Numbered from the stretch's first letter, positions 26,691 to 59,620 are shown. The stretch: DNA of 64,000 nt from Dysidea avara (GCF_963678975.1 NC_089281.1:27857151-27921150), one strand, 5' to 3'. Numbers and translations: made by a program. The notes: generated from the letters alone by a model not told the origin.

Positions 26691-27881
26691 ATGTTCAAAG
26701 AAGGTTTGCTTTTGCCATCTCTGGTTTTACTGGCTACCACTGTACCTAATATATAGACATGCAGGTAAGTGTATTTACATACACACAGTGACCTGTACTT
26801 TATAAGCTTTATACTACTCACTTTCTATACATATGTATAAGCATTATGAGTTTCTATTTATTCTTTTATTAATTAAGGCTTTGCTTTACAACACAGATGC
26901 TGGAGGTCTGTCGGTCCTATATACATTCCTTTATTTCCTTATATATATATATTGCATTTTATGTGCTCTTATTTAATCTTATATATAGCCTCTGGCTTAC
27001 TAGACAGACCACTGCATGTCTTTGTTATAACACCATGCAGGTAGCCTTTTGACAACTGTGCTGTTAATTTAATCAATTCCTCTTCTTTATACTTTTCCTA
27101 TTCACATGTATGTTTTACAGTGGCGCTTTATGCTTTCATCAAGTACATATTCATGATGTCTAGTTGTTTGAATGATGCAATGAAATGGCACCAACATGTC
27201 TAAGTGTGAGTGTGCATGCTTTGCTAAATGATATGTATAGGGAAAGCAAGTGGCCACACCTCTCAATAGTATATGGTAAATACAATAATAGCTTGTAGGG
27301 TTTTACCCAGTCCCAAGTCATCAGCTATGAGAATACAACCTTTGTGACAAACTTGCCAAACTTTATTTAGTATCACCAGCGTGCACAAAAGTATATGTAC
27401 TATATGTAATAATATTTGTACATGGTTATAATAGCTCAGCTTAGCATAAGTAAGCTACATATAGCGTACGTGTGAATGTGTGATATGAATGATTTTTCTT
27501 AATTTTCAGCCACTCAACTACCCTGATATTCCAGTGACATACAGGGTTATCATAAATGAAGCAGATCATCCTGATTGTCCTCTAGCAGGCAATACTTCCA
27601 GTCCAGGTGAAATAAATCTTGCAGTACCTCATGGAGTTACTGGTATTCAACTAATGGAAGCTGCAGTGGCTGTAGATAAGAAGTTTCATTTTACAGCATC
27701 CTTTGACTATGCAGAGTTTGGGTATCATATTGACTCAATCAATGGCATTCTGGAGGATGCAACCTGTTACTGGGGACTGTATTATCAATCTTACAATGCT
27801 ACCCCAGTTTACAGCAGTGTTACAATCAGTTCCTTTTATCCCAGCTTTAAGGCAATAGTCACTTGGATCTACGGAAAGTAG
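26691..27881 (+). CDS. TCbeta-like secreted protein gene 1 (possibly defective): exon 1 26691..26764, exon 2 27510..27881
   Basis: Exon 2 (acceptor aattttcag) encodes PLNYPDIPVTYRVIINEADHPDCPLAGNTSSPGEINLAVPHGVTGIQLMEAAVAVDKKFHFTASFDYAEFGYHIDSINGILEDATCYWGLYYQSYNATPVYSSVTISSFYPSFKAIVTWIYGK*. The candidate signal-peptide exon MFKEGLLLPSLVLLATTVP..(donor gtaagt) is 74 nt, so it is out of phase and carries an in-frame stop relative to its paralogs. Confidence 0.55.
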
Positions 27882-29118
27882 CTCTATGGCCTTACACCAC
27901 TTATGCATGTGTTAATGCAGCCCGATTGTATATACTTATGTTTCTGGTATAGTTAATTCATCCATGTGTCTTCTTAGCTGTGTCACTGTGTGCCCAGAAA
28001 TCACTAATGAGGACAGGATGCATGCTGCCATCTGCATGCCAGGGATCTTGAACTTACATACTATATACAATTTAAAACTCACTCATGTAAAGGAACAGCC
28101 CCCATGCACAAAAGACCATTTGCTAGTCATCTTAAAAACGCTATAAGCACCCAACACAATTCATTAGTATCTTTTAAATGATTCTGTTGAAGTATGCAAT
28201 GGGTGACTGACTGACTGACTGACTGTATAGAGAGTGCATAGCATGATGAGATGACTCAGTAAAGCTTCAATTGCTAGCTACAATTATTTCATTCTGCTGA
28301 TATGCATCAAGTACATATATATGCCACTAGATTTATTACCAACGTTTGTGACAGAAGTAGTAGTGACTATATAGATTGCTGCATTCCTGTAAAAATGTAT
28401 GTTGCACTACCATGCACTATACAAACCCAAGCAATTTAGTGATCTGTAGTTTATTGGTTGCATGGCTGATAAAGAGCATGAGACTTTATACATATACTGC
28501 TTAAGGTGAGCTCTAAGAATCACTCAAGAAAATACCTTCTAATCACCCAACCCGCCACATACATTGATTCATACAAGTATAGTTTCTTTCCCACTAATGT
28601 GCTTAAGCTCTGGAACAGTTTACCCCCAGACATTGTGCTTATAAGTATCCCGATTGTCCAAGTCAGCTCACCATGCAATTAAGTGTCCAAATTATGTAGC
28701 AAGTGTCCACATTATCATAATTAATTCTGCTGACCTTAGCATGCTACGGGTTACAGAACTCAGATAGCTGAAGACACATGCAGAGCAGATCATAATAGCA
28801 AGGTGAATAGCTGACACTTCCGAGTCCTCTGCAATGTCATCTAATGAATTAGACAACAAGGAATGAGAGGCTGGAAATTAGAATATGCTTAGATACAGTT
28901 TCTTGAAATGAGCACAAAGATAGCTATGAGTTGATCCATATTTAAGAGGATGTTTGTTGGTGAGACAACTCCTAAAACTAAGTTCATGTTTATATAAGCT
29001 TCAGCCGGCAGTGTTGTTGGTTATATAGCAGCAAAACTCTTAAATTTCCAATTAATATGTATCTATAATCTGATAGTTTTCATTTTTCCTTAGCAACACT
29101 GTTGCATGTTTCATAGTA

Positions 29119-29349
29119 CAGTGGAAAACCTCAGTTACCCGGACCTCAGTTATCCGGATTCTCAGTTAACCGAACTATGGAAATGACTGCTCTATTAGAG
29201 TAGTGACTGCTCTATTAGGGTAGTCTATACAAAAGCTATATGATATTTTTACCAATGTTGTTTATGGTTTAACGTTTCATAGATATGGACTTTTCAGACT
29301 TATGGACCATCCCTGGTCCCAAGGGGTTCGGATAACTGAGGTTCCACTT
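29119..29349. mobile_element. MITE family A, copy 2
   Basis: acagtggaaaacctcagttacccggacctcagttatccgg...ggataactgaggttccactt. Shares the ctctattagagtagtgactgctctattagggtag core with copy 1. Confidence 0.65.
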
Positions 29350-29989
29350 TATAAATTATGTGTACATGCATGATTTTTGATGAATTATCCCATTTTTATC
29401 CATTTTTTTACACTCTTCTTCATATCACATGGCTATCTTTTTTTACAATACCTGTACATGCAAGAAGTTGATGTTGAATGTAGAGGGAGTTCCAGATCCT
29501 ACAGGAGCATGTGCATAGTACACATTTTGGCAGAAGAGTATATACTGGGTCTGGGAGTTTACTAGGTCTGAGAGTTTATTTTTGATGTCACAGACATTTA
29601 CCTTCGGCTCCCAGTGGGATAGCACTTATATACATGTTAGAGTATTGCTATGTTGTAACATGTGCATTGAGCAGCTTTGTAGCTATACATATACATATAT
29701 TAGTTATGCATGCAAGAGTTAATCTTTACAAAAATGTCACAGTGTAATTTTACAAACAGTGGTCAACACCACAGAATTTTATAATAACAAAATGTGGTAT
29801 AGAACTTTGAACTCTTAAGTCATGTGATGTTTTGTTATCATTTACTTCCTGTCATTTGGTATGCATTTTGTCTTTATTTGGGATGATGGAATTTAAATTA
29901 TTATTACAGTGGGATTGTACGTCGTAAGGTTTATAACACATCTTGAATATACAATTGCAGTCAAATCTTATTATTCACAACAGCTGACC

Positions 29990-31010
29990 ATGGTAGTTTT
30001 GCTTTTGCCAATTCTGACTATCCTGGCTGCCACTATACCTTGTATAGATATGCAGGTAAGTGTAGTTGCAGTGATCTATGCTTGTGATGTGCAAATACCA
30101 AATTTTATACATTTATACCAGGCTTGCAGCACCCTATAGTTTGGCTGTTATATACATTTTTGAATTCAGTTATTGTATTTAGTGTGTAACTCTTTATACT
30201 TTTCTGGCAGTTTTATAAGCTTCTACATGATGGCTTTGTGTCAGCATATGTTTAATTTGTACACACAAATGGTAAAAGTTGTGTATATGATGCATCAACA
30301 CCTAGCAATAAGAAGCTGGCTTATAGGTTGATTATTGTATGTTACTGTTGAGCTGACATGCAAAGCTTCTCACTGTGTTCTCAGAAAACATGTTTATACA
30401 ATCTTTAACATTGCCGGAACCTGTTTCATGCTTATATTTCAGTAGATTTTTCTAACAACAAAGGAACATAATCCAAGAAAGTTTCAGACTTATAGCTGTA
30501 TGTCACAAATCAGAACTTATAGCATAAATTATATGCATTCTTTCACAAACATGTCCATAAACATGTCCATACTTCCAGTCACATTATGATGTACACCATA
30601 CATACAGGCTAATGTTGTGTACTTTTCTTAATTTTCAGACTCTCAACTACCCCAATATCCCAGTGACATACAGGGTGATTATAAATGAAACAGACCGTCC
30701 TGACTGTCCTCTGGCTGGTGATACTCCCAGTCCAGGTGAAATAAGTCTTGAAGTACCACAAGGAACTACTGGTATACAACTGATGGAAGCTGCTGTGGCA
30801 GTAGATAAAAATTTTCGTTTCACTGCATCTTTCAATAGTGCAGAATTCGGCTATTTTATTGAATCAATCAGTGGTGTTGTAGGGGATGCAACTTGTTACT
30901 GGACTTTATCTTACCAGCCTTACATGGCCTCCACAGTTGTAAGCAGTGTTGGAATCAGTTACTACTACCCCAGCTACAAGGCAATAGTCCAATGGGTGTA
31001 TGGAAAGTAG
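29990..31010 (+). CDS. TCbeta-like secreted protein gene 2: exon 1 29990..30055 (MVVLLLPILTILAATIPCIDMQ), exon 2 30639..31010
   Basis: Exon 1 is 66 nt, phase 0, donor gtaagt. Acceptor attttcag. Exon 2 encodes TLNYPNIPVTYRVIINETDRPDCPLAGDTPSPGEISLEVPQGTTGIQLMEAAVAVDKNFRFTASFNSAEFGYFIESISGVVGDATCYWTLSYQPYMASTVVSSVGISYYYPSYKAIVQWVYGK*. Confidence 0.8.
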
Positions 31011-33449
31011 TTCAATAACTTCATTAACACATTACACACGTGTACACTGTTACAGCTTAATTATTAGCATGTTTAAATCACAAGAGAGGATCTATATATG
31101 GTATATAACTGATGCATTAACTCTTACAAAAAATCGTCATCTAGCTGTACTATTGCATGTACTCTGCAAAAAAAATTAAGAACATGCGCAACATTCAGTC
31201 ATGTGAACACAGGATCCATATGTTACTGCATATAATTATATCTGCATAAGAACACAGAATGCAGTAAGCAACATGTGGTCAAGGGTACCATCTCCATTAG
31301 CTATATATTTGTTGTTGAGTTAGGTTCAAGCCAGCCTATGCTATTGAAATATGAAATTAGCTAATACTTACAATTTATATGATACAAGTTCTAGATGAGA
31401 ATGAGGTACTATACTATGATTTAATGCAAATTCATCCTACTTTACCTCATTATGTTGTTATTATTACACTTCAGAGCAATACTTCTCCTGTTCTGTCCCA
31501 ACTATATAGTGTACAATGCATGTACATTCCTTTTGTTGACTTTTCTATTTTATATAACCAAGTGTATGGCAGCTGTATAGAAGGGGATTGTTTTATTATG
31601 ATTGTTCTATTAGAGAGAATGCACATTATGCAATCAACAGCCTATTAATTTTTATCCCACTCATACATTTCCTTCTAAACTTAATGGTTGTGAAATAAGT
31701 ATGCGGGTACATGTTAATGTTTCCAAACATTTACTACGCTAACCTCTGTGATAAAAATTGAGCAACATATATAAGATGAGAAACTTGAAATTCTGAGTAC
31801 TTCTCTATAATATAAGGCAGGCCCAGAAAACTACAATTTAAGACTGACCATTTATTTGGCATCAATTTTGTCCTGCATACCAAAGAGCAAACAACACCAA
31901 AAATACTAAACTGTGTGTAGCAATGTACAAAAAGTCTTGTATTGGTAGGCGTTGGGTTGTATTATGGATGAATTGTGACCTGAATCTGTTGTCAGTGACT
32001 ATTACAACTGCATGCATTTTCCACAATAAAATAAAATAATTCTTTTACGTGCTTATGTGCAGTGTTACTCCACTGAATGTTGTGAACAATTTTGTTCTAG
32101 GACTAAAATGAAAGCTATAGACTACTAAAAGTTCAGGTAGTTAGTGATGTTTATTTCTGTAGTCAAACACACACACAGACTCAGATAACTATACTTACAT
32201 TATAAATGATAGGTACATACATTCCAAATAGCATTCATAATTTCATCACCATGAAAATACCCATGGAAGCATCGTGAAATGCGTAATATTTGTCCGCATG
32301 TGTTTATATGACCACTCAGATGCTTACACAAGAAGCTTGTATGGTTTCTGGTGTGTTGTGCATGGGTGACCACTAATTATATTATATTGATGGCCATGGG
32401 GGGTAATTTGTAGTCTCAAAGAATCCCATTGTATCGTACTTGTTCTGTAGACAATATTCTCATATATCTTGTAATTTCATTGATTCTCCATGTGATCATC
32501 ATCCTGTCTGCATGTGAGGGAAAACAGTATATTGTGTGTGACTCTGGATTGTATGGCTTGAATCACAAGACCTCTGAGCCTACCTTGTGATACACATATA
32601 TACCACAAGATATAAAAGAGCAACTCTGTTAAGATGTCTAGCTGGAAAACACATATACACTTAACATGTGCACTGAAACTTACTGAGTATTACCACATCA
32701 TGCAGTTTGTACATCCATATAAGCTTCAAAATGCAGTCATGCACCTCATATTACAGTGGAGCCTGTTAATCAGGACACTTGAAAATGTGGGCATGATAAT
32801 CTGGACACTTGGTACCAAGAGTTTATAATATACAATATTAGGAGAGAGTGTCAAACTGCCAATACAGCCTGTACAAACACACTGAGTAAAATTAGACTTT
32901 TGAAAGTTTTGATCCAATTGACTCATGTACTGGTGGAAGGCAAGTGTTGATATGTGTTGAGATGGTGAAACCTTTGTACAAACCAAGGTGTTGATATTCT
33001 ATCTTACTCAGTGTATTTGCTGGAATGTACTCCTGTTGGACACTCTCTCTTACTACTTTATATTATGAACTCTTGTTGGTACTAATGGTCTCAAAATATC
33101 CCTTAGCATGCATGTAAACTGATCTGGACACACCTTAATTATCACGACACCATTGGTCAGTCCCAAAATGCATATCCTTAATAAACAGTAATTTGTTCAA
33201 AAGCTGAACTTAATTAACAGGTTGTGTTGACAATTAGGCAGTTTCCCTTAGCTATATCATCTATGGCTGCTTCATATGTGCATGACATAATCATGTGATA
33301 TAATTATGGTCTTAATATAGCTCTATATAACCAGGTTTAGCTCATTTGATCGGTACTGCATGGCTGTGCAGCAAGGCCCCCAGTTGATTTGCTGCATCTA
33401 CCTGTAGTCCCATAGCTATACTGAGACCTCTCTAGAATTGACTATAATC

Positions 33450-34027
33450 ATGGCAAAACAATTGTTGATCCTGCTATTTCTGGTGATGATCATGACAATG
33501 AAAAGAACTAGTAGTATGGTAAGAATGCATAAGCCATAAATCTCTATACTAGGTATATAATGTAGTTAGTTCTCTTGGTTCTACTGTAGCAGTTCATTGT
33601 GACATGAATAATGATTTATTATCTTTAGGAGCTAAACTACCCTGATATCCCAGTCACGTACAAGGTGATTATCAATGAAAGAGACCGTGCCAACTGCCCT
33701 CTAGCAGGAAACACAACCAGTCCAGGAAAATTACGTTTAGTAATACCCCAAGGAACTAGTGGTATTGAGCTTATGGAGGCTGCTGTGGCTCAGAACAAGG
33801 ACTTTCGGTTTACTGTATCTTTCAACAATGCAGGACTGGGCTATTCGGTCCAGTCTATCAATGGTGTTACAAGAGATCTTGACAACTCCTGCTTCTGGAC
33901 ACTGTCTTTCAAGCCATACTTGGCTACCAAGCTGAAGAGCAGTCCAGTTGGAATCAGCAGCTACTATCCCAGCTTTAAAGCAGTAGTCCAGTGGGAGTAC
34001 CGCCGATTCCAACATGACGATAAATAA
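33450..34027 (+). CDS. TCbeta-like secreted protein gene 3: exon 1 33450..33518 (MAKQLLILLFLVMIMTMKRTSSM), exon 2 33629..34027
   Basis: Donor gtaaga, acceptor atctttag. Exon 2 encodes ELNYPDIPVTYKVIINERDRANCPLAGNTTSPGKLRLVIPQGTSGIELMEAAVAQNKDFRFTVSFNNAGLGYSVQSINGVTRDLDNSCFWTLSFKPYLATKLKSSPVGISSYYPSFKAVVQWEYRRFQHDDK*. Confidence 0.8.
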
Positions 34028-35160
34028 ACATAATTTTAAGGAGATGGAACTGTTATTTCACTGTGGTGTTATACAAAAAATTGTGTTGTTCTAATATAAA
34101 AGTGTATGAAGAATTTGACATTCTAATATTTAGCTATACACATACCACTAATATTGTCTCACTGTCACATGGTATAACAAGCTAAACTACTAACTTAGCC
34201 ACTATTGTCATTTCAGTGTAATTACACATGAACAGAACATGCAGAGTAACAAATTACTGATTGAGCATGCCACTACACTTTGGAATCATGTGCATATATA
34301 TAGCTAGCTTGCAGATAATAGATACAACAGATCTATAGAGCTGTCTTCCATTTTCTACTGCATGGTGAGTTTGTCCACTAACAGATTTGGAACTGCAGTG
34401 CATGGCTGAAAATTGTAAATGCCTATATATCAGAATCATACATTGGGTTGGTGGTCAGAAGGATTTTTGTGTGGGAATAATAAGATGAATGGCCGTAAGA
34501 GTGAAACATTACCAGCCACGCTATGAAAACTAAATTGCACATCCATGTAAGGGAGTTTTGGCCAATGAGTAAATAAAAAAGAGACAGAATGTGTGCCGCA
34601 AATTATAGCAGACTTCTGGTCACTATACAATGCAATTAAATTGTAAAAGTGCAATTGTATTCAATCCAAACACTACAACAATTGTCAGCTGTTTCAACTT
34701 ATTACATCATCAATATACTTTGATGTTGCATATATAGGCAGACAGAAGTCCCTCTTTTAAGTCATGTTCCAAATTATGTCCAATGGTCCACTTGGAGCAA
34801 ATACTATATGCACTGCTACCTGCTCCACTCCACACGTCACCCAATGTAATAGTATTGAAGTAGCAATAAATGATGCTATTCCCTCGAGATCCCAATATAT
34901 TATGATAATTGTGCGAGTTCTCGGTATACAAGCTCTGTGATGTATTCTTACTAGATATATATAATGTGTTGGTTTTTTGTTCATATTAAATGTTTATAGG
35001 TATCTGTGACATGTGTATATATACACTATACTAAATTTATTCCAGCAACCGTACAAATGCTGCAGTTATATATAGAGCTACATGTTTACAGAGTGACATA
35101 TTTGTAAAGTTCCCCATTCAGTCGCTATTTCTACTCAGTCTAGCTGGTTGGTGGTGAAAT

Positions 35161-35867
35161 ATGCAGCAAATATTAAATGTGGCCATTTTGATTCTGTTAA
35201 TGATATGTGAGAAAATTTATTGTCAGAACACAGTGAGTTATTGTTCAGTTGTAATCTACAACATACCATGCATGGCATATAGTTATTGTATGTATATAGG
35301 CATGTCACAGGAAGCTCAGAAAACTTCCTAAAAATACTTTGAGCTTTGTGATATTTCTTTTTTTTTGAAAATTATATTTGTGTTATGCCACATAAATATT
35401 CTGCTCTTTCCATGCTGCATGAAGTTCCAGTTTTGTACTATACACTAAATATATTTGGTAATTGTAATTTTATGCAGGCTCTCAACTACCCTGATATCCC
35501 AGTGACATACAGAGTTCTTTACAATGAAACAGATCGCACCAATTGTCCATTAATGGGAGACACTTCCAGTCCAGGGGAAGTACGCCTTGTGGTACCACAA
35601 GGGATTAATGGAATAAAATTAATGGAAGCTGCTGTGGCCAAGAGTACCAATTTTCGATTCACAGCTTCTTTCAGTCGGGCTGGTCTGGGATACCTCATCA
35701 CATCAATCAATGGTACAGCATCAGATGTTGCCAATTCTTGCTTCTGGATACCTTCCTTTAAGCCTTATCTGGCTAAAGAGCTTATCGTCAGTCCAGTTGG
35801 CATCAGCAGTTATTATCCAAGCTTTAATGCTGTACTGGAATGGGAGTATCGACAGTTTGATCACTAA
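35161..35867 (+). CDS. TCbeta-like secreted protein gene 4: exon 1 35161..35232 (MQQILNVAILILLMICEKIYCQNT), exon 2 35478..35867
   Basis: Donor gtgagt, acceptor tatgcag. Exon 2 encodes ALNYPDIPVTYRVLYNETDRTNCPLMGDTSSPGEVRLVVPQGINGIKLMEAAVAKSTNFRFTASFSRAGLGYLITSINGTASDVANSCFWIPSFKPYLAKELIVSPVGISSYYPSFNAVLEWEYRQFDH*. Confidence 0.8.
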
Positions 35868-36855: not shown

Positions 36856-37791
36856 ATGGAAAACCAAGTATTGATCTTCATAACAATCATGTTGTGCACC
36901 TTGGCATTCCAAGAAGCTAACTGCATGAGGAGGGGGAAGCAGGTACGTAGCTACGTAGCTAACTCTTCCGCTGTCACGGGAAAAATCGGTCCAGCCTTTG
37001 GATACCAAACTGGTCGGGCCGGACCATTCTCACCAGCTAGTTTTGGTTCAAAAGTTGAACGATTTATAGCTAGCTAACTAGTTCAACTCAGTTTTGAACC
37101 TGGTCGCTCCACAACTCAAGAGCGCCAGCTCCTTTTCAGTTGGCCCCTGAACTATAGTATGATGCAGTAGCTCAGTACAGTAAATTAACAATTGATTAAT
37201 CAGTGCATTGCTATTTGACTAGTGGGCCCGGGTAACTCATAATTGTAGGAGCTAAAGGGCATTCATTTGAGCGATTTTCAGGCTGATTAACTGCACTCAT
37301 ACATTTATTGTTATAGGCATTATAGCCAGCTAAAAATGAAGGAAGAAATTTTAAATCACAAAACAATTATTGTAACTATCTTTCCTTGCATGTAGGCTCT
37401 CAACTACCCTGATATCCCAGTGACATACAGGGTGATCATCAATGAAGTGGACCGTGCTGATTGTCCTTTAGCTGCTACTGCTACCAGTCCTGGTGAAGTA
37501 GAGCTTGTGGTGCCCCAAGGAACCAATGGTATTGAACTGATGGAGGCTGCTGTAGCTAAAAACAAAAATTTCAAGTTTACTGCGTCCTTCAATGATGCAG
37601 GATTGGGCTATTTCATTGAATCAATAAATGGGGTTGAGGGAGATGTTGAAAATTCTTGTTTCTGGACACTGTCTTTCCAGCCTTACCTTGCCACTCAGCT
37701 AGTCACCAGTCCAGTTGGAATCAGCAGCTACTACCCCAGCTTCAGAGCAGTAGTCCAGTGGGAGTACCGACGATTCCAACATGAAGATTAA
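36856..37791 (+). CDS. TCbeta-like secreted protein gene 5: exon 1 36856..36942 (MENQVLIFITIMLCTLAFQEANCMRRGKQ), exon 2 37396..37791
   Basis: Donor gtacgt, acceptor ttgcatgtag. Exon 2 encodes ALNYPDIPVTYRVIINEVDRADCPLAATATSPGEVELVVPQGTNGIELMEAAVAKNKNFKFTASFNDAGLGYFIESINGVEGDVENSCFWTLSFQPYLATQLVTSPVGISSYYPSFRAVVQWEYRRFQHED*. Confidence 0.8.
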
Positions 37792-42094: not shown

Positions 42095-42420
42095 GTGACA
42101 TTGTGCTGTAAAGCCTTAATAAATAAACTGATATCCATTTGGTTCCACATGGGGTACTTAGAGATAATAAGTCACTCTCTAGAGTTCCTATATGGATACA
42201 TATACATGAAATTGACAAGGAGAAAACATCCTGACCACCTGACAGACTCCGGCTGTAAGCGATCGAGCGTTAATCGGATGGCTGCAGGTTTGAGGCTGCC
42301 CAGGTCCAGTCATGGATTTTTCTCCTTTCTCCACCTTTTCAAATGCACTTTCTGTAACAACTTTACACAGGCTGTAGGATCGACCCTCAGCACTTGTGCT
42401 GTAAAGCCTTAATAAATAAA
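42095..42420. repeat. SINE-like ~300-bp interspersed repeat family B, copy 1
   Basis: Shares long blocks (gctgtaaagccttaataaataaact...cagactccggctgtaagcgatcgagcgttaatcggatggctgcaggtttgaggct...caggctgtaggatcgaccctcagcacttgtgctgtaaagcc) with copies at ~47525-47760, ~50820-51010, ~51040-51250 and ~51290-51545, in both orientations. Confidence 0.65.
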
Positions 42421-45115
42421 CTTAAAACATAAAAATCACAATTAAGCCGCAATGCAACGCAACAAGTGACATATTCACAATTAGTAACTAAGGTTTGTTG
42501 GTCTATATAGCCTGAGAATATAATTATTTTTTTTTAAATTGTGGTATATATAATTGTAGCCTGAGAATATAATTTAAAAAAATTAAATGAATTGACACTC
42601 ACTAATTAAAATTAGACTAGTACTTCTGTTGGTGTGCCTCCCAGGACAACCCTAATCAGTGAGATATGTATTGACTTACCCACGTCTCTTTGTGATGTGC
42701 ATGTGATTAGCATGTGACTATACCATAGTTACGATTTTATACACAAGTACAGAGTTATTACATGTTTATAATGAACACTTTGTAGTATCAATAGTTGACT
42801 TTTCTTTGTTGGAATATAATGTATGCTGTGGCTACATACATGTACATACAAGAGAGGATCCAACGTTTTGAAAGAGGCGGTAAACCAGGCTAGTTATGAG
42901 TTAGGGGTCTGGGTAACACATCTATAGCCCCCTAAAGCTTTAGGCATTTTATAAAATTAATTTTAGCACTGAAAGTTCTAGTAGTTTTGTGTACAAAATA
43001 CCGAATTGTAGAGATCAATGATATACAGTGGTAATTCCTATAAGTATAATTTATGATAATTCAGTAGCTATGGCAGCTAACTATCACAAATTATTACCTT
43101 TTGCAGTGATATGCCATGAACATACTTGTTTCCTTTTTGTATAGGATTTTGCATTGACTGCATCAACAGATTGCGATCATCTCAGACTCAGCGTATTTTT
43201 ACTATTACGTATTTTTACAAACTGCTCAAGGACATTGGTATATCTGTCAAACCAAAGCAATGAGAACAAATTCAATCTCAGCAGGCTAGACTTTCAAAAT
43301 TTTTCTGTGGGAGGCATGAATGCTTCATGCACATGCTGAGTTTGAGTGCACACCGTAGCTACTATAGTTGTATCAAGCATATGTATTGCTTCCTATACCA
43401 TCATGTGACTTTTCAGGAAGCTGCAGGCCAGCTTCTCATATCTATAAATCTATAAGCACTGTCAGTTTACTAAATTAATCTTTTTTAGAGAGTAGTAGCT
43501 TACCCTTTTATACTTGAAAAGAGAATTTTGAATGTGTTACAATGTAATACATTCAAAAATGTGTTACTTTCAATAACACCTGGCCATATTTCTTTGAAAT
43601 GCATCAAGCGATTAGCCAATAGAATTAGTATTACACTTGTTCGTCAAGGTCCCTTAATTGACAAAAATCTGTAATAACTTGATTAGCTATGTCTGATTCG
43701 ACTAGTGTCAGTTGCATAGTGATAGATGCCTCATAACAGCAACAATTTGGTTGTTTAGCAATGGTTGCTGGGTAACTGTTGTTAAGGTAACATGACTTTA
43801 GATGGTGTGATTAGTCTTTTGCTGGTGCTTAGTAACAGTTGCTATAGTTGCCAGATTAATTTGTATAGGATGACTAGTTGTGGCATTCCCTTAATAATTC
43901 TCAGTTTGTAAACAGGGTTATGCTTTACCTCACACTGAGTGCCCAGCTATAGGGGCATTCATAGTGGGTGCTAAAAATGTGGCAACTGGTTGATACAACT
44001 ATTGTGTCTATTAGAGTATTTCAATGTTTAGCAGTTTACTCTTTGATCCCCTCCTGTTGATTCCTAGAAGAGATTAGCTCTCTTCTTCTCATTGTTTCCA
44101 TGTTTTCATTGCCCATGTGTGCTGTAGATGCAACTTCACCTGTACTGTAGCTTCTACTAGCTATAGCACAAATATAAAATTTGTATCGGAATATCACAGC
44201 CAACCATCCTACTACATATTATACAAATACTATAGAGTGGTTAAACAACAAATTTTGAAAAAATAGTATAATTTTACAAGAATCGTTCATTTAGATAAGC
44301 CCTGTGTGATGTAAACTAAATGATTTGAGATACAGACCATATATGGTGCCACATCAAAATTATTACTAAGGTGTGTTTAAGACTTATAGCTATTTCCATA
44401 GGTAGCTATATTCCCTATAGGTAGCTATATTCCCTATAGGTAGCTATAGGGAATATATAGAGTCTATGTATAAAGCCAAACACATGGACTTTGAAATCGT
44501 CTGTGGCCGCTTGTGCAGATTTATTTTGCAACCATTGTATTAGACTGTTTTCAATATTTCAGAGACCCAGTTGAACACAAGTAATATGTTTCACCTCTAT
44601 GGCTTTGCACAGTATGGCTCCTTGTGTTTCTTAAGATAATGACCTGGTGAACTAGCTGGATGGACATCTTCTGGGTCTGATTGTAATAAAATGCAAAGTT
44701 ATAGCTTTCATACACTATTGAGCATTTCCCATATGTTTTTATACTTGTCAGGATTTATGTGCATGAATAGTGGCATCTTATAATATGAAATGGTATGGAA
44801 TGAGTAAAGTTTTACTAGTTTGGTAGTGTTTTTATTGCAAGAGAAGCATGTTGGCATGCTCTCACAGGAAATAAAACTTCTGAAGTTGAATATGAGAGTG
44901 ATTTAAGCAGTTTATCAAATACCATTATATTATTATTATTGAATTAGGGTGACTGTTCTATTAGGGTATCTCAATCATGCTTGACCAATTTCTGGAAACC
45001 CCAGAACCCCCTTTGAGGTGTCCCTGTAAATGTGTTATTTAACAAGATAATATAGTCACTATATATGTAAATATAGTCACTATATATGCAGTTTGTCATA
45101 AACGTTTGCTTGTGT

Positions 45116-45502
45116 TCACTCAAGTTGTCGGTATTCCCACTGGACAACAGATTTATAACTGGGGTAGTAGCTGCTGATTCCAACTGGACTGCTGATGAGT
45201 TCCGTGGCAAGGTATGGCTGAAAAGACAGTGTCCAGTAACAAGAATTTTCAGCATCTCCTGGAACACCATTTATTGACTCAATGAAGTATCCTAGTCCTG
45301 CATCATTGAAGGAAACAGTAAACTTGTAGTTGCTACAACTGGCCACAGCAGCCTCCATTAGTTGAATACCATTGATCCCTTGAGGTACTACCAGATGGAC
45401 TTCCCCTGGGCTGGTAGCATTCTCTGCTAGAGGGCAATCAGGACGATCCACTTCATTTATGATAACCCTGTATGTCACTGGTATATTGGGGTAGTTTAGA
45501 GG
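45116..45502 (-). CDS. TCbeta-like secreted protein gene 6, exon 2 (domain exon); proximal exon 1 not found
   Basis: Acceptor ttttctag on the minus strand, exon starts at 45502. Encodes PLNYPNIPVTYRVIINEVDRPDCPLAENATSPGEVHLVVPQGINGIQLMEAAVASCSNYKFTVSFNDAGLGYFIESINGVPGDAENSCYWTLSFQPYLATELISSPVGISSYYPSYKSVVQWEYRQLE*. The C-terminus is shortened by an indel relative to gene 7. Confidence 0.7.
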   Translation of the reverse strand, partial: PLNYPNIPVTYRVIINEVDRPDCPLAENATSPGEVHLVVPQGINGIQLMEAAVASCSNYKFTVSFNDAGLGYFIESINGVPGDAENSCYWTLSFQPYLATELISSPVGISSYYPSYKSVVQWEYRQLE

Positions 45503-46496
45503 CTAGAAAAATGGATACATATGCATCCATACACAACACACAGAGACTAACTACAGGAGTATAAGTATATACACTATAATGTGTGGGACCGACCTGAGCA
45601 ATAAATCATATACAGTTGTGTATGTGTTGTGCACAAATGTCATACACTAAGAGATTCAAGGGCATGCCTTCAAAAGAAATATATGGCATCTCACATTGAG
45701 TACTTTTTTCAGTGTGTTACAATTAATTCCACTGAGAGAGAGTGTGTGTGTGTTATGTGTGTGTGTGCGTGCGTGTGTGTGTGTGTGATTGAGCTTGCAT
45801 GTGTATGGATACAAAATTAAAACATTTAGCTAGCTATATTATGTCTCTTAGCATGATAGCTTTAAAGACAAGTTATTACAAAATGTAATCAATAACTACC
45901 TTGTATCAGTGCAAAAGTAGCATTGTCAAAATAACTTTAATTTGAAGATCAAATCTTCTTGTTGTGATTGCCTCTGCATGTTTACAAGGATAGGTATCAA
46001 AACACTCTGTGAGTAAGATACTGATACGAACTATGAATGGACTTTAGAAGTGCTATGAGTTATAATTAGTCTTGGTGTTAGGTGTGTAACTGAGAGGCTC
46101 AAACACCCAAGACAAAAACCACTGGATAAAATCAATGTGCATGGAGAGTGGGTATAGTACCAGTAACTATATGTACTCCTAGGTGGTAAAAGAAGGGGCA
46201 GAGAACAGTGGGGGGTAAGTCATGTGAGGTGACTGTAAATTTAAAAATCAACAACTGTACCACAATAGTGTGCAAGTTAACTGGGGTGTCTGGGGGCATG
46301 CTTCCACAGGAAAATTTTGAAATTTGAATACTTTGAGATTGAATCTGAGAGCATTTTCAGTGGTACATGTGTACTTGAATAGGATATTAAGATCAAAATG
46401 GATATTAAGCCGGCACTGGTTTTCAAGCAAGGAACAGATATTTGATTGGCTTTACTCATTTTGACATTAGGAATTCCTCCTATACATTTGTAGGAT

Positions 46497-46612
46497 TATT
46501 GACAGTGCTTCTAGGATTAGGAACAGCGCCCCTAGGATTAGGAACAGCACCCCTAGGATTAGGAACAGCGCCTCTATATAGGATTAGGAACTAGTATTAG
46601 GAACAGTACTCC
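46497..46612. repeat. 21-bp tandem repeat (aggattaggaacagcgcccct) x ~5
   Basis: Direct tandem repetition with minor variants. A second 21-bp triplet repeat (ccctataggtagctatattcc) lies at 44400-44465. Confidence 0.8.
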
Positions 46613-47938
46613 TAGGTTTAGTGTTAGGGTTGGATTCAGCCTTGGTTTGTTCTTCACTTTTGTTACTAATATATAGAGGTTTCTTCATTTTCACATTTAA
46701 AATCTGAGGTAGAAACTAAGGGAGATGGGTAGTTGGAAGCACCGTGGTACAGTGGTCACGACAATGGAGTGAGATGTGTCTTGGGTTTGAATCCTCAATT
46801 CACCACAGATCTTTTTCTGTTCAGTACCCTTTCAGTGACATGTTTTTCTAAGTTTTTTCAATTAACATTCTTTCTGCTGGCTTTATATCCTCTACCTATT
46901 AAGATACTGTACAATTAGCATTTCAGATAGACTCTCATGCTCTTGATTATGTATATTATGTGTTAATGGAGACAGATTGAAGTAACTGCATAACAGAACC
47001 AACCTATAGTGATTCCACTGAATGCTCTATTAGAGTAGTTAAATGACTGCTCTATTAGAGTATCTAAATCTCTTGCACTCCCAGCACTGATTCATGCAAT
47101 ATTCCATTCTTGGATAACACTTCAAGCCACTGCAAATAAATTCTCTGTTTCCCATCCTGGACTCAGGTAAATTTGCATGTGGGCGGGCAGTCCATTTCCA
47201 TTATAAGATTGGCAGCATTTCAAGCCATTATTTGCCAGGCACAGCCATAAAATGCTGTGCATATAACAGTATGCTTAAGCTTGTACCTTCCTTTTAAGTT
47301 GCAAAAAATAACACTAACATGAATTTGTGCCACCTTGATAGCACTGCTGACATGTGAGCTGACATTGTTACAAGATGGCCTGTACAGAATGCAAGAATAA
47401 CTGGAAAACACGGAATAATGGAATATTTAGAGCTGACAGTAACCAGATGCGGGCGGTGGACAGGAAACTTTGGAGTGGCCTTAGCACAAATCCTAGTAAA
47501 TCATAGCTAAGTTTTTTATTTTTATTAATGCTTTACAGCACAAGTGCTGAAGGTCTGTAGGACACCTGGTCCTACAGCCTGCTCAAAGACTTTAGCTGTG
47601 TTTGAAAAGTTGAAGAAAGGAGAAAAAATCCATGACTGGACCTAGGTAGCCTCGAACCTGCAGCCATCCGATTTACGCTCGAACACTTACAGGAGTCTAC
47701 CAGGTGGTCAGGATGTTTTCTCCTTGTTATTTTCATGTAACTATATCCATAGGAATTCTAGAGAGTAAGTTAATTGGCTAATGACTAAAAATAGGTACAA
47801 TAGTTGCTTTACTTTAGCAACTGGTCATCGAGGGGGTACTTCCCCACCACTCTTCAAAATCATGAAAATGGAAGGGCATTTGCCCCCCTCCCCCCCCCCC
47901 CGGGTCAAAAGTGAACAAAAATAGAGATTATCACTCAC

Positions 47939-48001
47939 CACATCCATGCAGTTGATTTCTTGGTGCACTACCAATATTATCAGTATTTGCAATAGAAACA
48001 T
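47939..48001 (-). CDS. Orphan signal-peptide exon of the TCbeta-like family (MFLLQILIILVVHQEINCMDV, donor gtgagt); candidate distal exon 1 of gene 6
   Basis: 63 nt, phase 0. Nearly identical in structure to gene 7 exon 1 (MIQQIFLLIILIAYKETNCIDV, donor gtaagt), including the flanking gataatc. It would imply a ~2.4-kb intron to 45502. Confidence 0.45.
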
Positions 48002-48081
48002 CTTTAATTTGTGCCTTTCACGTCAGCTACATAACCGAGCATAACCATGGTAACAAAACAAAAAAATCTACACTGGCCGCG

Positions 48082-48543
48082 CCTAGTCTCGCGTAGCCAG
48101 ACCCTATTTCTCCGCACGGCGCTTATCGATTGGAAATTATAAGCGCCTGCTCCGAAACGCGCCTGCCGTAGAGCACGAGCCAGAACATAGATTTATTGGC
48201 TCAGCGTAGCTACTCAGCAGAACAGGCTGCAGAACGGAACATACGGATTCCAGGGACGGGTTCACTACTAGCTCTGAGTACCGTATTAAAAGGCAAGAAA
48301 ATTTCGTGGTATTAAATTTTCGTGGTACTGATTAAATTTTCGTGGATTGCCAAAAATCAGTAATTTTTTGTGGAACTAATTATCTACGCAACAGTGGAAA
48401 TTTTGAAAACTGACATTGGTCACAACTCTACTTGCAGTTCACCTCTAGTCTCGCGTGGCCAGACCGCTTTTTCTCAGCACGGCGCTTATCGATTAAAATT
48501 ATAAGCGCCTGCTCGAAAAAGCGGTCTGGTCACGCGAGACTAG
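48082..48543. mobile_element. MITE family C (TIR cctagtctcgcgtggccagaccgc), containing a perfect ~100-bp palindrome at 48442-48543 and three aaattttcgtgg direct repeats
   Basis: tagtctcgcgtagccagaccc at the left. At the right, tagtctcgcgtggccagaccgctttttctcagcacggcgcttatcgattaaaattataagcgcctgctcgaaaaagcggtctggtcacgcgagacta. Related termini at 58335-58365 and 61264/61698. Confidence 0.65.
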
Positions 48544-51500
48544 TTCACCTCTTCAGTTAGCTCTCAAAGACCACCTCATTAGCTATAGTTCCAAAGCATG
48601 ACATAGTATACGTTATGTGGGTCATCTTGATTGAGACGATTATTTCTTGTGTACCATGATGACACCCCAATTAACTGTGAGAATTTGCACTGCGTACACT
48701 GTATGGGAGCCTTTTGGGGCCAAAATCTGAATGAAGTAGCAAGGTTAGCTATACCTAGCTACCATGATATGGTCTCACATATCCACTTATCATTGCATGG
48801 GTAAAAGAATGTGACTTGATGTCTACGGTGTAGACATCAGTCATTGCAAGTCACATTCTTTTACCCATGCAATGATAAGTGACTACGTAGTACAGCTAAT
48901 CCACCACAGACTCTTTTCCCCTGACAAGAAAGCCATGCCTATGCTGGTACGGCATTATGTAGAACCTCAGTCCCAAAATGCTGTTATAATAGCCATAATT
49001 TATCCATGATCTTGTATATTGATCATAGGCTGCTCCAGGATTTTCGGTTTCTGATCAAGAACACAGGTGAAGACCAAAAAAAAAGGTAAGTGCCTGCTGA
49101 CAATAACTGCCCTCCACTAACTATGTATTGATACCACCAAGAGTTCATAATATAAAGTAGTAAGATATTGTATACTATAAACACTTGATATCACTGATAA
49201 AGCACATAAAAGTCCCTACATAGCTTGCTACACTGCTACTCTAAATACTGTGACTGCTTTATTAGGGTGATTGACTGCTCTATTACCATCTCGATCTGAA
49301 CGTGACTGGTTTCCGGAAACCTCAGAAACCCCCCTGGAGTCATCCCTGATTGATAGCTACCACAGGCTCTTTTTATTGGTGCTTCTGGGCTGCTATAAAA
49401 ACTTATTTTGAGGTCGTGAATTATTGATATTTTTGAATGAGATCATTAAGCATAACCTGGACCTATATATAGTTGACATGTCCCAACTATAATGGGATTA
49501 TCTTATTCTAGTGGAGGTAGTTTCTTATAGAGGTGCATATAAAGAGGTATACTCATTAATATACAGACTATTACAAATCATAAAGTTTTGACCAATTACA
49601 TCAGTGCAGTCTTTTTAGTTTTCATTTTTTGATTTCAGTTTTCTTCAGTTTCAATTTCCACTGTTTCTGATGTCGGAAGGTCACTTTACTCTGAATTTGT
49701 GTTCAAGTTTATATTAATGGACCTGAATCAGCATTGAAAGTGCACAAGATCGAGATATTCTAATGGAGTCGCGGACCTATATACCTACTGGCTGGCCATG
49801 GGTATATAGTCCCATGTGGAATTACCCTAGCTATGGCCAGTCATCATTTCCAGCTATATAGTTCATGCAGTAGTGGGAAGTAAGGTAATGCCCTGCAGCA
49901 TATCATGGAAGGACTTGTGATTTGTTGAAGATGATTAGTTATTAATATAATATACACATACATGTACATAGTCACTATACAGCTAGCTATACAAGCCTCC
50001 CTCAGATACTGCAAGGAATTAAGACATCATTTTCCTTCACTATATATAGTGTGACTATGAATGACTGGCTGCCCCAAACACATAGAATAGGTATTGCATC
50101 CACAACTGTACAAATGTTAGCATGACAGCAACATCTTGACAAGCTCTATTTAAAATTGACGTTTCTATATAGTTATAAAACGAGAAATTAGCCAACCACC
50201 ATTTTAGTGATTTCATAGCTGGTATCTTTTGTTTAACTTGCTTCTTTGTCAATTTGATTTGACTCTGGATTTATATCCCATGTGACCTGCAAGAAGCCTG
50301 CCACATTAAGTTATACTAATACAGAAAAAATATCTTTACTAGGTGGTGACTTGATGACAGCTTGCAGACTATAGGAGTCACACAGCCTCTGATGATTTCC
50401 TCTGCCATGACCAATAAACAACATGCATGACTTCTTGGGATTATATTAATTTATGTAGCTATAACTACTTAGCTATTGCTTTGTGTCAATTATATATTAT
50501 AGTTGTGTAGCCATTTGCTGGCGAGAGGTCGATGTTTTGAGTACAGGTTGAATGCAGAGAAGATCTCAGACCCCGGCTGTTGTGGCTCCTCTGGCTCATG
50601 CCTAGACTGCATGTTGCTGGGGATCAAGTCACCACTGGGTCTGGGATTTTTTTTCTGCATACTTCATGTTTCAGTTACATGTTTCTGACTCCCTGTATTC
50701 ACAGGCTTTAAGCCTTCTCACAGGTCCCTAGTGGGATAGCATTCACAGAATAGTTATTTAGCTACCTATAGCTATATGTGTGTATGTAGCTTAGGGAAGC
50801 ACCCAAGCTTGTACATTTATTTATTAACATTTAAGGCTTTACAGCACAAGTGCTGAAGGTCTGTATGTCACCTGATCCTACAGCCTGTTTATAAAGTTGT
50901 TATATAAGTTTGTTTGAAAGATGCAAAAAGGAGAAAAAATCAATGACTGGACCTGAACCTGCAGCCATCCGATTAACGCTCAAACGCTTACAGGAGTCTG
51001 CCAGGATACTTTCTCCTTATCAATTTCATGCATATGAATTCTAGAGAGTGACTTGTTATCTCAAAGTATTCGATGTGGAACCAAATGGACAAGCATTAAC
51101 TGGATGGCTGCAGGTTGAGGCTTCCCAGGTCCAGTCATTGATTTTTCTCTTCTCTGTACTTTTTCAAACACAACAACTTAAACAGGCTGTAGGACCAGGT
51201 GTCCTACACACCTTCAGCATGTGCACTTATTCTTTAAAGTCTTAATAAATAAACTAATGCCATTTGGTTCCACATTTATGGGATACTTTGAGATAATAAG
51301 TCACTCTCTATAGAGTTCCTATGGTTGATAAGGGGAAAACATCCTGGCTGACTGGCAGTTTCCTGTAAGCATTTGAACGTTAATCAGATAGCTGCAGGTT
51401 TGAGGCTACATGCCCAGGTGTTCAGTAATGGATTTTTTTCTCCCAGCTTTCTGCACCTTTTCAAACATATTTTATAACAACTTTAAACAGGCTGTAGGAC

Positions 51501-52782
51501 CAAGTGTCCTACAGACCTTTAGCACTTGTACTATAAAGCCTTAATACACACAGGCAAACCCTTTTGGGAAACCATGTCTCATGTTTTTGGACAAACTAGA
51601 TAATAAAGTAAATATCAAAGAGGAACAGCCTTTCTCTGTTGAACTTTCTCTGCATTTGGAGCAGGACAAATCCAGATTTTTGGTACTAAGGGAGGGTCAA
51701 ATTTGAGCATGCATGCCTGGCTTTTAAAGTTGCTATCTTAAACTGAGCTGCCTGCTATGCATGATATGCTGTATATATATATAAGGTGAATCTATAATAC
51801 AGCAGCAATAGTATAAACATTAGACACGCAAGAGTATGAAGGTGTGACTGACTCACTACGTCAAAAGACAATTAAAATATGAACAAAAGTTATTTAATTA
51901 AAGTCTGATGATTTACATTTACCAGTCTATAGTTACGGTGCATGGCACTTGAGGTTATAGACTATCATGCATGATATACTCTGCAGTGATATGATTGGTT
52001 TGATAACAATGACAATATATGCACAATAATGTGATGACTATAGGTTATGTGGTTACTGATGGCTACAGCTTTTGGTGTATTTTATTGTGTATGCCATATA
52101 CGTGCCTGTTCAGATAGGATTAATTAGGCCTCAGGGTAAGAAAACAAAATACCTTAGCTAAGCACATATTATCATGTCTTAGCTATTAGACTCTCTAAGC
52201 AGTACCATGCATGTAAATAATTTTTCAATAGATATTTTTTTAGTTAGTTCTCTTTGTGCTTAATCCTGTAGCTGATTAGTAAGCCTCACCTTCAGGTACC
52301 ATCACTGATGACCAGTGAGTACATAGTTACACTTTCAAGCTACTGAATTTTGGTTTTGAGTTCCATGTCTGGCTGGGCTTTTCATGTCTATAACAATAAC
52401 TTCCCTACATTTGTAATACCACTATTAATGTTTTTATTTTTACACAAACACAAAAACACCTGCTTTCAAACAGTGGCTATAATATAATTATGTGAGGGGG
52501 CATAGGAAAAAGGACCTAGCTATAACAGTTAGACACGGAATTTGAGTTATGCTAATCAAAGAATTCCACAACTCACCATCTGTTCATGCATATTTCGAAT
52601 TTCAAGTTAATAGTCTCAATACTCATTAAATTTTGTTTCATGTTATTACTCTGAAACTTCACTCAGCATGCAAAGGTTATATGCAAGTGTAATTTCCTAA
52701 TTTACTATACTTACCTACAAATAAACGGAAATTTACTGACTTTTACTGAAAAGTAAAAAAAACAAACAAAAAAACCTGTATA

Positions 52783-53195
52783 CAGTGGAACCTCCCTTAT
52801 CCGGACCTCTATTATCCGGGCACCTCCATTGTGTGGACAGCCCAAATTGGTCATGTGGCTAACCATAATGAAGTTTGGTTTAGATGAAAGGACAAGGAGG
52901 GAGCCTAAAGGTTGCAGTTTACCTGTTTGGTGGCTTGTTTATTCTACTAGCAATAACTACCACTTGGTTGCTAGGTGATAATACATTTTTACAGCCAAGG
53001 GGAGTGACCATGAATGCTCTGTAGTGACTTCCCCTCTGCCCATAAACTACATAGCACTAACTGATAGCAATAGCAACATTACTTGTATTAAGATAGTCAC
53101 TTTTAGCATAATAGCATATTATTCTTAGTTACGGACATTTCTGAGATACGGACAGTAGTATGTACCAGACCGCCCGGATAAGAGAGGTTCCACTG
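52783..53195. mobile_element. MITE family A, copy 3 (longer, ~410 bp)
   Basis: cagtggaacctcccttatccggacctctattatccggg at the left and cccggataagagaggttccactg at the right. Confidence 0.6.
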
Positions 53196-53530
53196 TAGGT
53201 CCCTTTTCCTATGCCCCATCACAAATATGAACGAAGATCAATGAAACAAGTTTCTATAAAACTCACTCTGTAGATGTACTTAACAGATATAACTCTACAT
53301 TATAATGGCAGCTTGTTATGTTTCAGGGTAAGGTTGCTGAACAATACACTTTATTCCATATGTATTTAAGTAGCTGGCTATTGGAATTGTATTTCCTGAG
53401 CATTAAAACACGCATCTGAAACTACTTGCTTTGCGTGCCAGGTGGCTATAGCTATAGTGTACAGTATTGTATTTGTCACAAATTGTGTGCCACACTGAAT
53501 TACAGATGTCACAGTGTATATATTCTACTT

Positions 53531-54080
53531 TCACTCTTTGTCGTCATCATGTCGGAATCGTCGGTATTCCCACTGGACCACAGATTTATAACTGGGGTAG
53601 TAGCTGCTGATTCCGACTGGACTGGTGATGAGTTCTGTGGCAAGGTATGGCTGAAAAGACAGAGTCCAGTAACAAGAATTTTCAACATCTCCTGGAACAC
53701 CATTTATTGACTCAACGAAGTACCCTAGTCCTGCATCATTGAAGGAAACAGTAAACTTGTAGTTGCTACAACTGGCCACAGCAGCCTCCATTATTTGAAT
53801 ACCATTGATCCCTTGAGGTACTACCAGATGGACTTCCCCTGGGCTGGTAGCATTCTCTGCTAGAGGGCAATCAGGACGATCCACTTCATTTATGATAACC
53901 CTGTATGTCACTGGTATATTGGGGTAGTTGAGTGGCTATAAGATAAATTGAGCAGTTATCTATACATGACTAAACTATGATGATAGTTCAACAAATAAAA
54001 AGATTATCACTTACCACATCAATGCAGTTGGTTTCTTTATATGCTATTAATATTATCAAAAGAAATATCTGCTGTATCAT
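53531..54080 (-). CDS. TCbeta-like secreted protein gene 7: exon 1 54080..54015 (MIQQIFLLIILIAYKETNCIDV), 79-nt intron, exon 2 53935..53531
   Basis: Donor gtaagt, acceptor ttatcttatag. Exon 2 encodes PLNYPNIPVTYRVIINEVDRPDCPLAENATSPGEVHLVVPQGINGIQIMEAAVASCSNYKFTVSFNDAGLGYFVESINGVPGDVENSCYWTLSFQPYLATELITSPVGISSYYPSYKSVVQWEYRRFRHDDDKE*. About 96% identical to gene 6 exon 2. Confidence 0.8.
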
Positions 54081-59280: not shown

Positions 59281-59466
59281 TGCTATGTATGTATGTATGT
59301 ATGTATGTATGTATGTATGTATGTATGTATGTATGTATGTATGTATGTATGTATGTATGTATGTATGTATGTATGTATGTATGTATGTATGTATGTATGT
59401 ATGTATGTATGTATGTATGTATGTATGTATGTATGTATCATGTATGTATGTATGTATGTATGTATG

Positions 59467-59498
<32 letters not shown>

Positions 59499-59620
59499 TG
59501 TATGTATGTATGTATGTATGTATGTATGTATGTATGTATGTATGTATGTATGTATGTATGTATGTATGTATGTATGTATGTATGTATGTATGTATGTATG
59601 TATGTATGTATGTATGTATG

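Follow-up and report, generated by a model that had tools for sequence, protein, structure and literature searches.

The locus described here raises the question of what a row of seven small, similar genes in the sponge Dysidea avara encodes and what the products might bind. The genes lie in a 64,000-nucleotide stretch of the genome (GCF_963678975.1 NC_089281.1:27857151-27921150), which was analysed as a whole and is called the window below; positions are counted from its first letter. The array genes are annotated merely as 'uncharacterized protein', and they score below Pfam thresholds. We found that the domain encoded by their second exon is homologous to the C-terminal β-domain of transcobalamin (TC), intrinsic factor (IF) and haptocorrin (HC). 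Animals cannot make B12, and no description of a host-side B12 binder in sponges was found in the searchable literature. We put the array genes forward as candidate host-side B12 catchers in the sponge.

Identity of the domain

A sequence-only reading of the window had described the gene products as free-standing β-domains of the transcobalamin type, and the profile searches agree with it. A single-sequence phmmer search of gene 7 against the PDB returned noise only (a phycoerythrin linker, E 0.79), so a profile was required. Two were used: profile A1 holds the close, sponge-only family, and profile A2 adds more distant relatives. The best PDB sequence for A1 was the β-domain of IF, residues 314-369, with E 0.026. 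A2 matched IF residues 305-390, which is nearly the entire β-domain, with E=3.5e-6, and haptocorrin with E 0.044. When A1 was run exhaustively with HMMER against 1.84 billion representatives, 209 matches had E≤1e-3. They include strong Pfam DUF4430 proteins (up to 219 bits), 'transcobalamin-like C-terminal domain-containing' proteins of Mya arenaria, and the placozoan protein P0174, which is 73% identical to the 'Gastric intrinsic factor' of Trichoplax sp. H2 and has an N-terminal Pfam Cobalamin_bind α-domain (89.7 bits) as well as the β-domain. In hhalign the sponge family aligned with the Mya arenaria protein at 95.7% and with a placozoan IF/TCN protein at 96%.

Searched directly against Pfam, genes 5, 6 and 7 matched DUF4430 (PF14478) with 22.6, 22.5 and 20.2 bits, where the gathering threshold is 23.8 bits. 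The distant relatives found with the sponge profile exceed that threshold, at 25-219 bits. DUF4430 was matched at E<0.1 by 22 of 31 family members (best 1.9e-4), and no other Pfam family recurs, which is what the sequence-only reading had expected of such a search, except that the window copies themselves stay sub-threshold. Gene 2 also matched pAdhesive_6, with 15.6 bits where 27 are required; it is the sole member to do so, and the match was dismissed. The proteins belong to the DUF4430 superfamily by profile and by fold, not by the Pfam single-sequence threshold. Pfam PF01122 had no match in the window copies or in the 31 family members, and the proteins are outside that two-domain carrier family because they have no α-domain. 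The results support stand-alone, secreted TC-β/DUF4430 domain proteins, that is, carriers of β-domain-only architecture with a presumed secretory signal, a single domain and no α-domain.

Only four columns are invariant in the wide alignment (C23, F61, G71 and W90), and C88 is kept in at least 90% of its sequences. The sequence-only reading had proposed that two conserved cysteines form one disulfide. The invariance of C23 and the near-constant C88 support this, and the pair probably forms the bond, which is itself a prediction.

The structure of the gene 5 domain was predicted with AlphaFold2 on the A1 alignment (pLDDT 85.5, pTM 0.80), and the strand order of the model is β-β-α-β-β-β-β. This predicted fold, a β-hairpin followed by a helix and further β-hairpins, is ubiquitin-like and of the TC-β type. 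The ten best matches in a Foldseek search of the PDB were all IF, TC or haptocorrin, with E 5e-6 to 3e-4, and normalising the TM-score to 5no0, the human TC β-domain in isolation, gave 0.85; the similarity to the transcobalamin β-domain that the sequence-only reading had anticipated is therefore present in the model. The next match was a bacterial DUF4430 structure, 3u7z. In the structure comparison the model scored 14.1 with both haptocorrin and intrinsic factor, 13.5 with both 5no0 and bovine TC, 11.3 with 3u7z, and 7.3 with the next fold, that of generic β-grasp proteins.

Conserved block and bacterial relatives

Conservation in the sponge family is highest in the block F(R/K)FTASF..AGLGYFI.SING....NSCFWTLSF.PY....SPVGISSYYP. 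In TC, the ligand first meets the β-domain, at β3'-β7' and at the loop β7'-β8', and the α-domain then closes and selects (PMC11107200). By alignment and model, the conserved sponge block spans the elements with which TC anchors its ligand. Even in isolation, the human TC β-domain binds both cobalamin and cobinamide, which come off only after extensive washing (PMC5599065). In haptocorrin, specificity depends on the triad Arg357/Trp359/Tyr362 (PMC4350170), which maps onto the sponge motif A-x-L-G-Y-F in the HMMER alignment. The sponge residues at these positions appear compatible with a corrinoid pocket and hint at differences in specificity.

Among the Pfam-positive relatives the best-scoring was P0240, a bacterial protein of 150 amino acids (aa) with a lipoprotein-type N-terminus, which aligned with the sponge family in hhalign at 98.1% (E 8e-14, 41% identity over 82 columns). 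Its gene lies in an operon, shared by three independent samples, that encodes this stand-alone DUF4430 protein, a 648-aa protein and a DUF6580 protein. The 648-aa protein combines DUF4430 with a faint SQHop_cyclase_C/squalene-cyclase-like region, and that region is of the α/α-barrel fold class to which the TC α-domain belongs. The operon is divergent from a reductase gene whose best NCBIfam match is adenosylcobalamin-dependent ribonucleoside-triphosphate reductase, at 280 bits and so under the 340-bit equivalog cut-off.

A search of the bacterial loci with Rfam at gathering thresholds found no cobalamin riboswitches. A sensitive scan of the 460-nt leader found a partial adenosylcobalamin (AdoCbl) riboswitch core, which covers model positions 28-95 and thereby the region of the B12 box. 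The core is on the coding strand, 30 nt 5' of the point where DUF4430 starts, and two samples have it in identical form (positions 7900-7970 (+) in locus L007, where the operon occupies 8001-10983, and the same in L008). This context is suggestive, not conclusive, of a role for stand-alone DUF4430 proteins in B12 acquisition. The L007 operon resembles an uncharacterised B12-uptake module, similar to a 'split transcobalamin'. BtuH of Bacteroides, considered as a DUF4430 B12 binder, was dropped as a comparison, since the domain with which it binds B12 'has no known structural homologs' (PMC8941943).

Gene models

ORF (open reading frame) listing and a motif scan found seven paralogous exon-2 ORFs in the window at 27.5-53.9 kb, five on the plus strand and two on the minus strand. 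A tblastn search of the 64 kb with two exon-2 queries returned these seven copies, no more and no fewer, at E 1e-46 to 1e-88, and otherwise noise. All seven are where the sequence-only reading had placed them (Table 1). The pairwise identity between paralogues, for which it had given ~45-96%, was measured at 56-95% over the amino acids of the domain.

In the domain exons an AG acceptor with a polypyrimidine tract lies immediately 5' of the (A/T/P/E)LNYP codons. Upstream of it, exon 1 has an ATG start, 21-29 codons and a GT donor in phase 0. This shared two-exon architecture was correctly described for every gene except gene 1, whose 74-nt first exon contains a TAG. The description of the donors as always gtaagt or gtgagt did not hold, with gtaaga found in gene 3 and gtacgt in gene 5. 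Introns are 79-745 nt long in all genes but gene 6, where the intron alone is longer, at 2436 nt. The array is bounded by two ATGs, that of gene 1 at 26691 and that of gene 7 at 54080.

Two of the spliced models agree residue-for-residue with database proteins: that of gene 3 (155 aa) with P0004, an 'uncharacterized protein' of Dysidea avara at NCBI, and that of gene 5 (160 aa) with the Dysidea avara RefSeq protein XP_065919558.1. The RefSeq models of both genes terminate at the exon-2 stop, which contradicts the idea that exon 2 might be part of a larger unrelated gene.

The predicted precursors are 145-160 aa long and consist of a signal peptide and a single domain. The hydrophobic core of the exon 1 peptides is 9-15 residues, their c-regions are small or polar, and N-x-S/T sequons occur in family proteins. 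From the signal-peptide-like exon 1, the N-glycosylation sequons and the invariant Cys pair, we infer that the proteins are secreted.

Table 1. Exons of the seven array genes, with positions and strand in the window.
Feature	Positions	Strand	Remarks	Basis
Gene 1 exon 1	26691..26764	+	signal-peptide exon, disrupted; in-frame TAG 26754-26756; 74 nt to gtaagt donor	
Gene 1 exon 2	27510..27881	+	β-domain PLNYPDIPV...WIYGK*, short C-terminus subclass	ORF, tblastn
Gene 2 exon 1	29990..30055	+	MVVLLLPILTILAATIPCIDMQ; donor GTAAGT	sequence
Gene 2 exon 2	30639..31010	+	β-domain	ORF, tblastn
Gene 3 exon 1	33450..33518	+	MAKQLLILLFLVMIMTMKRTSSM; donor GTAAGA	spliced product = P0004
Gene 3 exon 2	33629..34027	+	β-domain	ORF, identity to P0004
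Gene 4 exon 1	35161..35232	+	MQQILNVAILILLMICEKIYCQNT; donor GTGAGT	sequence
Gene 4 exon 2	35478..35867	+	β-domain	ORF, tblastn
Gene 5 exon 1	36856..36942	+	MENQVLIFITIMLCTLAFQEANCMRRGKQ; donor GTACGT	spliced product = XP_065919558.1
Gene 5 exon 2	37396..37791	+	β-domain; sequence used for structure model	ORF, AlphaFold2
Gene 6 exon 2	45116..45502	-	β-domain	ORF; 96.9% identical in nt to exon 2 of gene 7
Gene 6 exon 1	47939..48001	-	MFLLQILIILVVHQEINCMDV; donor GTGAGT, then 2436-nt intron	homology to gene 7 exon 1
Gene 7 exon 2	53531..53935	-	β-domain	ORF, tblastn
Gene 7 exon 1	54015..54080	-	MIQQIFLLIILIAYKETNCIDV; donor GTAAGT, then 79-nt intron	sequence

Gene 1 damage and duplication history

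Aligned with exon 1 of gene 2, gene 1 has a 2-bp insertion that brings the TAG into frame upstream of its conserved gtaagt donor (26765). The site of gene 2's ATG reads AAG in gene 1, and the resulting exon would not be phase 0. Gene 1 is probably disabled, and the remaining six genes are apparently intact. Over all 21 exon-2 pairs dN/dS is 0.07-0.30 (Nei-Gojobori), so every copy has evolved under purifying selection. The highest values, 0.22-0.30, are those of gene 1 against the other copies, and since all copies, gene 1 among them, have values typical of purifying selection, its inactivation, if any, would be recent.

At the DNA level the similarity between paralogues is restricted to exons. 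Exon 2 of genes 6 and 7 has 96.9% nucleotide identity and dS 0.11 (45127-45508 against 53560-53941). Their first exons are homologous and visibly more diverged than exon 2, their introns are unrelated beyond ~25 nt at the donor, and the similarity breaks off sharply about four codons ahead of the gene 6 stop. The pattern suggests either gene conversion of exon 2 or insertion-driven turnover of the intron, and it would fit an exon-limited conversion tract rather than a recent duplication of the whole gene. Only genes 3, 6 and 7 have an AATAAA or ATTAAA poly(A) signal no more than 600 nt from the stop, which is uninformative.

Relatives in other genomes

Close relatives of the domain have 58-93% identity and a wider set has 25-40%; most come from Mb-scale ENA assemblies of other samples, in which genes were called prokaryote-style, so that exon 2 alone is visible. 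The named relatives in this survey are molluscs. The sequence-only reading had called the family lineage-specific, which is not tenable because relatives occur in other assemblies and in molluscs, as well as in bacteria.

One of the other ENA assemblies (locus L006) has the same arrangement as the array genes, with exon 1 encoding MKLTLVLFFLALFTFQEAIAQL, a gtaagt donor and a ~150-nt intron, followed by FRYPNIPVFYRV... Its signal peptide, MKLTLVLFFLALFTFQEAIA, is followed by QL and ends in a textbook A-x-A. A more distant member, in locus L002, has a comparable two-exon candidate. Three loci were scanned for further copies with tblastn. L001 and L002 hold a single copy within ±10 kb, and L003 holds two paralogues 2.3 kb apart, adjoining a NACHT gene. 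Local duplication is therefore common, not universal.

Some relatives are built differently. In the set of P0193, P0032, P0034 and P0040, some members (e.g. P0193 and P0034) have two tandem β-domains joined by a Pro/Thr-rich linker, and some have a hydrophobic tail and may be membrane- or GPI-anchored. P0030 of Batillaria attramentaria (836 aa) contains repeated signal-peptide-like segments and for that reason looks like neighbouring genes fused by annotation. In L006, four caspase-domain (Peptidase_C14) ORFs lie at 38-4167 (-), ~6 kb from the single β-domain gene; the D. avara window has no equivalent.

Proposed function and alternatives

Taking homology, the conservation pattern and the bacterial context together, we regard corrinoid binding as the most likely function, with a probability of roughly 0.55. 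The exon 1 signal peptide would be cleaved and the exon 2 domain released as a ~15-kDa secreted protein, which would capture cobalamin or related corrinoids extracellularly, from filtered or symbiotic microbes. Its β3'-β7' face would take hold of the ligand by the nucleotide side, much as in the first binding step of TC, and the holo-protein would then be taken up via a receptor. Symbionts have repeatedly been proposed as suppliers of B12 in studies of the sponge holobiont (PMC4412061, PMC11525543).

Several observations weigh against this proposal. None of the seven window copies reaches the DUF4430 gathering threshold, and four of the seven (genes 1-4) have no Pfam match, with DUF4430 searched at E<10. 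A β-grasp-like fold is common to many non-corrinoid proteins, which match the model at much lower Z. At the position of haptocorrin Trp359, genes 1 and 2 have Phe and the other sponge genes Leu. The position of Tyr362 varies: four genes (2, 5, 6 and 7) have Phe there, gene 3 has Ser, gene 4 has Leu and gene 1 has His. No B12-related gene was found near the array in the 64-kb window. The bacterial AdoCbl riboswitch match scores 33.9 bits (E 1.5e-4), below the gathering cut-off of 50 bits, and the sponge signal peptides were assessed by eye, without a predictor.

Some of these points would also be expected if the TC-β fold had been turned in sponges to a non-corrinoid ligand, for example a metal, a component of microbial surfaces, or some other metabolite or tetrapyrrole from microbes, and the proteins were secreted recognition or immune factors. 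Rapid duplication in a tandem array, and a paralogue pair beside a NACHT gene elsewhere, are typical of recognition families, and the putative nucleotide-pocket positions differ among the paralogues. All window copies are under the Pfam threshold, and 3u7z, the sole solved bacterial stand-alone DUF4430 structure, is entered in the PDB as a 'putative metal binding protein'. However, all relatives of known ligand bind corrinoids (TC, IF and HC, and also Tcnba and Tcnbb according to PMC9730659 and PMC10778862), the conserved block corresponds to the ligand-anchoring strands of TC (PMC11107200), and the nearest bacterial relatives sit in a B12-flavoured operon. We consider a non-corrinoid ligand unlikely.

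Two other alternatives keep the corrinoid and change how, or for what, it is held. The proteins could sequester it, as a haptocorrin-like scavenger that withholds corrinoids from the B12-auxotrophic microbes of the mesohyl or rations them among these, in a form of 'nutritional immunity'. Haptocorrin is described as a scavenger of broad specificity (PMC4350170), B12 auxotrophy and exchange shape sponge symbiont communities (PMC11525543), and a multi-copy, diversifying array fits such a role; sequence alone does not separate it from nutrition, and we give sequestration rather low odds. The domain could also be one half of a two-piece transcobalamin, in which a separate α-domain protein closes over the β-domain-cobalamin complex. 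Human TC-α and TC-β, expressed separately, assemble only when cobalamin is present (PMC5599065), and the bacterial operon pairs a stand-alone DUF4430 protein with a larger SQHop_cyclase_C-like α/α-barrel protein. Against this, an α-domain-like ORF is absent from the 64-kb window, no sponge Cobalamin_bind protein was recovered in a search limited by its word index, and the β-only proteins of zebrafish are reported to bind alone with high affinity (PMC10778862). A split carrier seems to us very unlikely.

If corrinoid capture by the β-domain is accepted, a further proposal can be made, which is speculative and to which we attach little weight. Sponges, and perhaps other filter-feeding invertebrates, may have evolved an expanded repertoire of secreted β-only binders that discriminate between the cobamides of different microbes, e.g. 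between cobalamin and pseudocobalamin. The paralogues would discriminate cobamide types because the nucleotide-pocket residue at the Tyr362 position differs among them (F, S, L or H). Were this true, the host could use the repertoire to gather usable B12 and to keep its B12-auxotrophic symbionts in check, and the holobiont would be structured by a mechanism that the host encodes. At ~130 aa and with probably one disulfide, the proteins are easily expressed candidates for corrinoid capture in an early-branching animal.

Surroundings of the array

Upstream of the array, two intronless, paralogous ORFs with the active-site motifs of phospholipase D (PLDc/PLDc_2) lie at 16644-18680 (+) and 21160-23052 (+) and encode 678 and 630 aa. 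Between them, at 19661-20701 (-), is an intronless, archaemetzincin-like ORF of 346 aa (Peptidase_M54). Intronless ORFs of several hundred codons are conspicuous in an intron-containing genome. An ORF fragment at 295-678 (-) has a weak SH2-domain match and a Pro/Ser-rich ORF of 351 aa at 7162-8217 (-) has no Pfam match; both probably belong, as exons, to signalling or adaptor genes that have no connection with the array.

The stretches at 38-45 kb and 48-53.5 kb contain short ORFs and an interspersed repeat only. The repeat is ~250-300 bp long and occurs at 42106-42416, 47521-47772 and 50816-51546 in copies that are 74-80% identical. The copy at 47521-47772 lies inside the intron of gene 6 and was not called as a tRNA by ARAGORN, and two inverted copies form a near-palindrome (50816-51253 / 51253-50816). 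Downstream of the array, a long tetranucleotide microsatellite at 59164-59691, which translates as (CMYV)n/(HTYI)n in every frame, gives spurious ORFs of 120-175 aa. A 184-aa ORF at 60795-61349 (+), MADNPYFAAFEKYYEQLEKALP..., has no Pfam match.

Comparison with known systems

With the β-domains of TC, IF and haptocorrin (5no0, 2bb6, 2pmv, 3kq4, 4kki, 4kkj) the sponge domain has in common F(R/K)F(T), the hairpin-tip Gly, I-N-G, (Y/F)W and G-(I/V)-S/A-x-Y-x-P. Unlike these carriers, the sponge proteins have no α-domain or linker, and identity is 18-22%. Compared with haptocorrin, they have Leu or Phe at Trp359 and a variable residue, mostly Phe, at Tyr362. The conserved Cys pair of the sponge proteins is absent at the aligned position in IF and haptocorrin.

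The 'Gastric intrinsic factor' of Trichoplax sp. H2 (P0281, 479 aa, Cobalamin_bind) aligned with the sponge family over its residues 369-479 (hhalign 96.1%, E 3e-9), and both cysteines align, in N-C-P and in C-(Y/F)-W. The placozoan carrier retains its α-domain, whereas the sponge proteins have none. The likeness points to descent of the sponge domain from the β-domain of an early-metazoan carrier, and the shared Cys pair hints at an early-metazoan origin independent of that of fish Tcnb. The placozoan homologue also served as query in a search for full-length transcobalamins of D. avara or other sponges; it returned placozoan proteins only, in a word-index search too insensitive to establish absence. 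Together with the placozoan homologue, the sponge family bears on the order of events, that is, whether an α+β carrier came first and the α-domain was then lost, or whether the stand-alone β-domain is ancestral.

The bacterial stand-alone DUF4430 proteins (P0240, the operon of P0152, and 3u7z from Ruminococcus gnavus) have a lipoprotein-type signal and no Cys pair. Unlike the sponge genes, they stand in an operon with an α/α-barrel-like partner and DUF6580, and their function is putative.

The closest likeness is to the teleost proteins Tcnba and Tcnbb, which are secreted, as the sponge proteins are predicted to be, with a DUF4430/TC-β-type domain as their sole domain and no α-domain (Benoit et al. 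2018 J Biol Chem, cited in PMC9730659, PMC10778862 and PMC11107200). For zebrafish Tcnba and Tcnbb, PMC10778862 and PMC9730659 (citing Benoit et al. 2018) report the lack of an α-domain and a cobalamin affinity close to that of Tcn2, and short DUF4430-only 'Tcn-like' sequences had been noted earlier in teleosts (PMC4350170). The sponge family differs from these in being non-bilaterian (from a demosponge) and sub-threshold in Pfam, in forming a seven-copy tandem array, and in that its binding is predicted. Its N-terminus is extended by xLNYP(D/N)IPV, and its β1'-β2' loop is long, with the invariant Cys pair. The claim made here is a modest one: carriers without an α-domain are already established in fish, and for the sponge proteins ligand binding is what we infer. 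On this comparison, the best functional analogue of the array is the fish Tcnb class, to which the sponge family would be a divergent addition in an early-branching animal.

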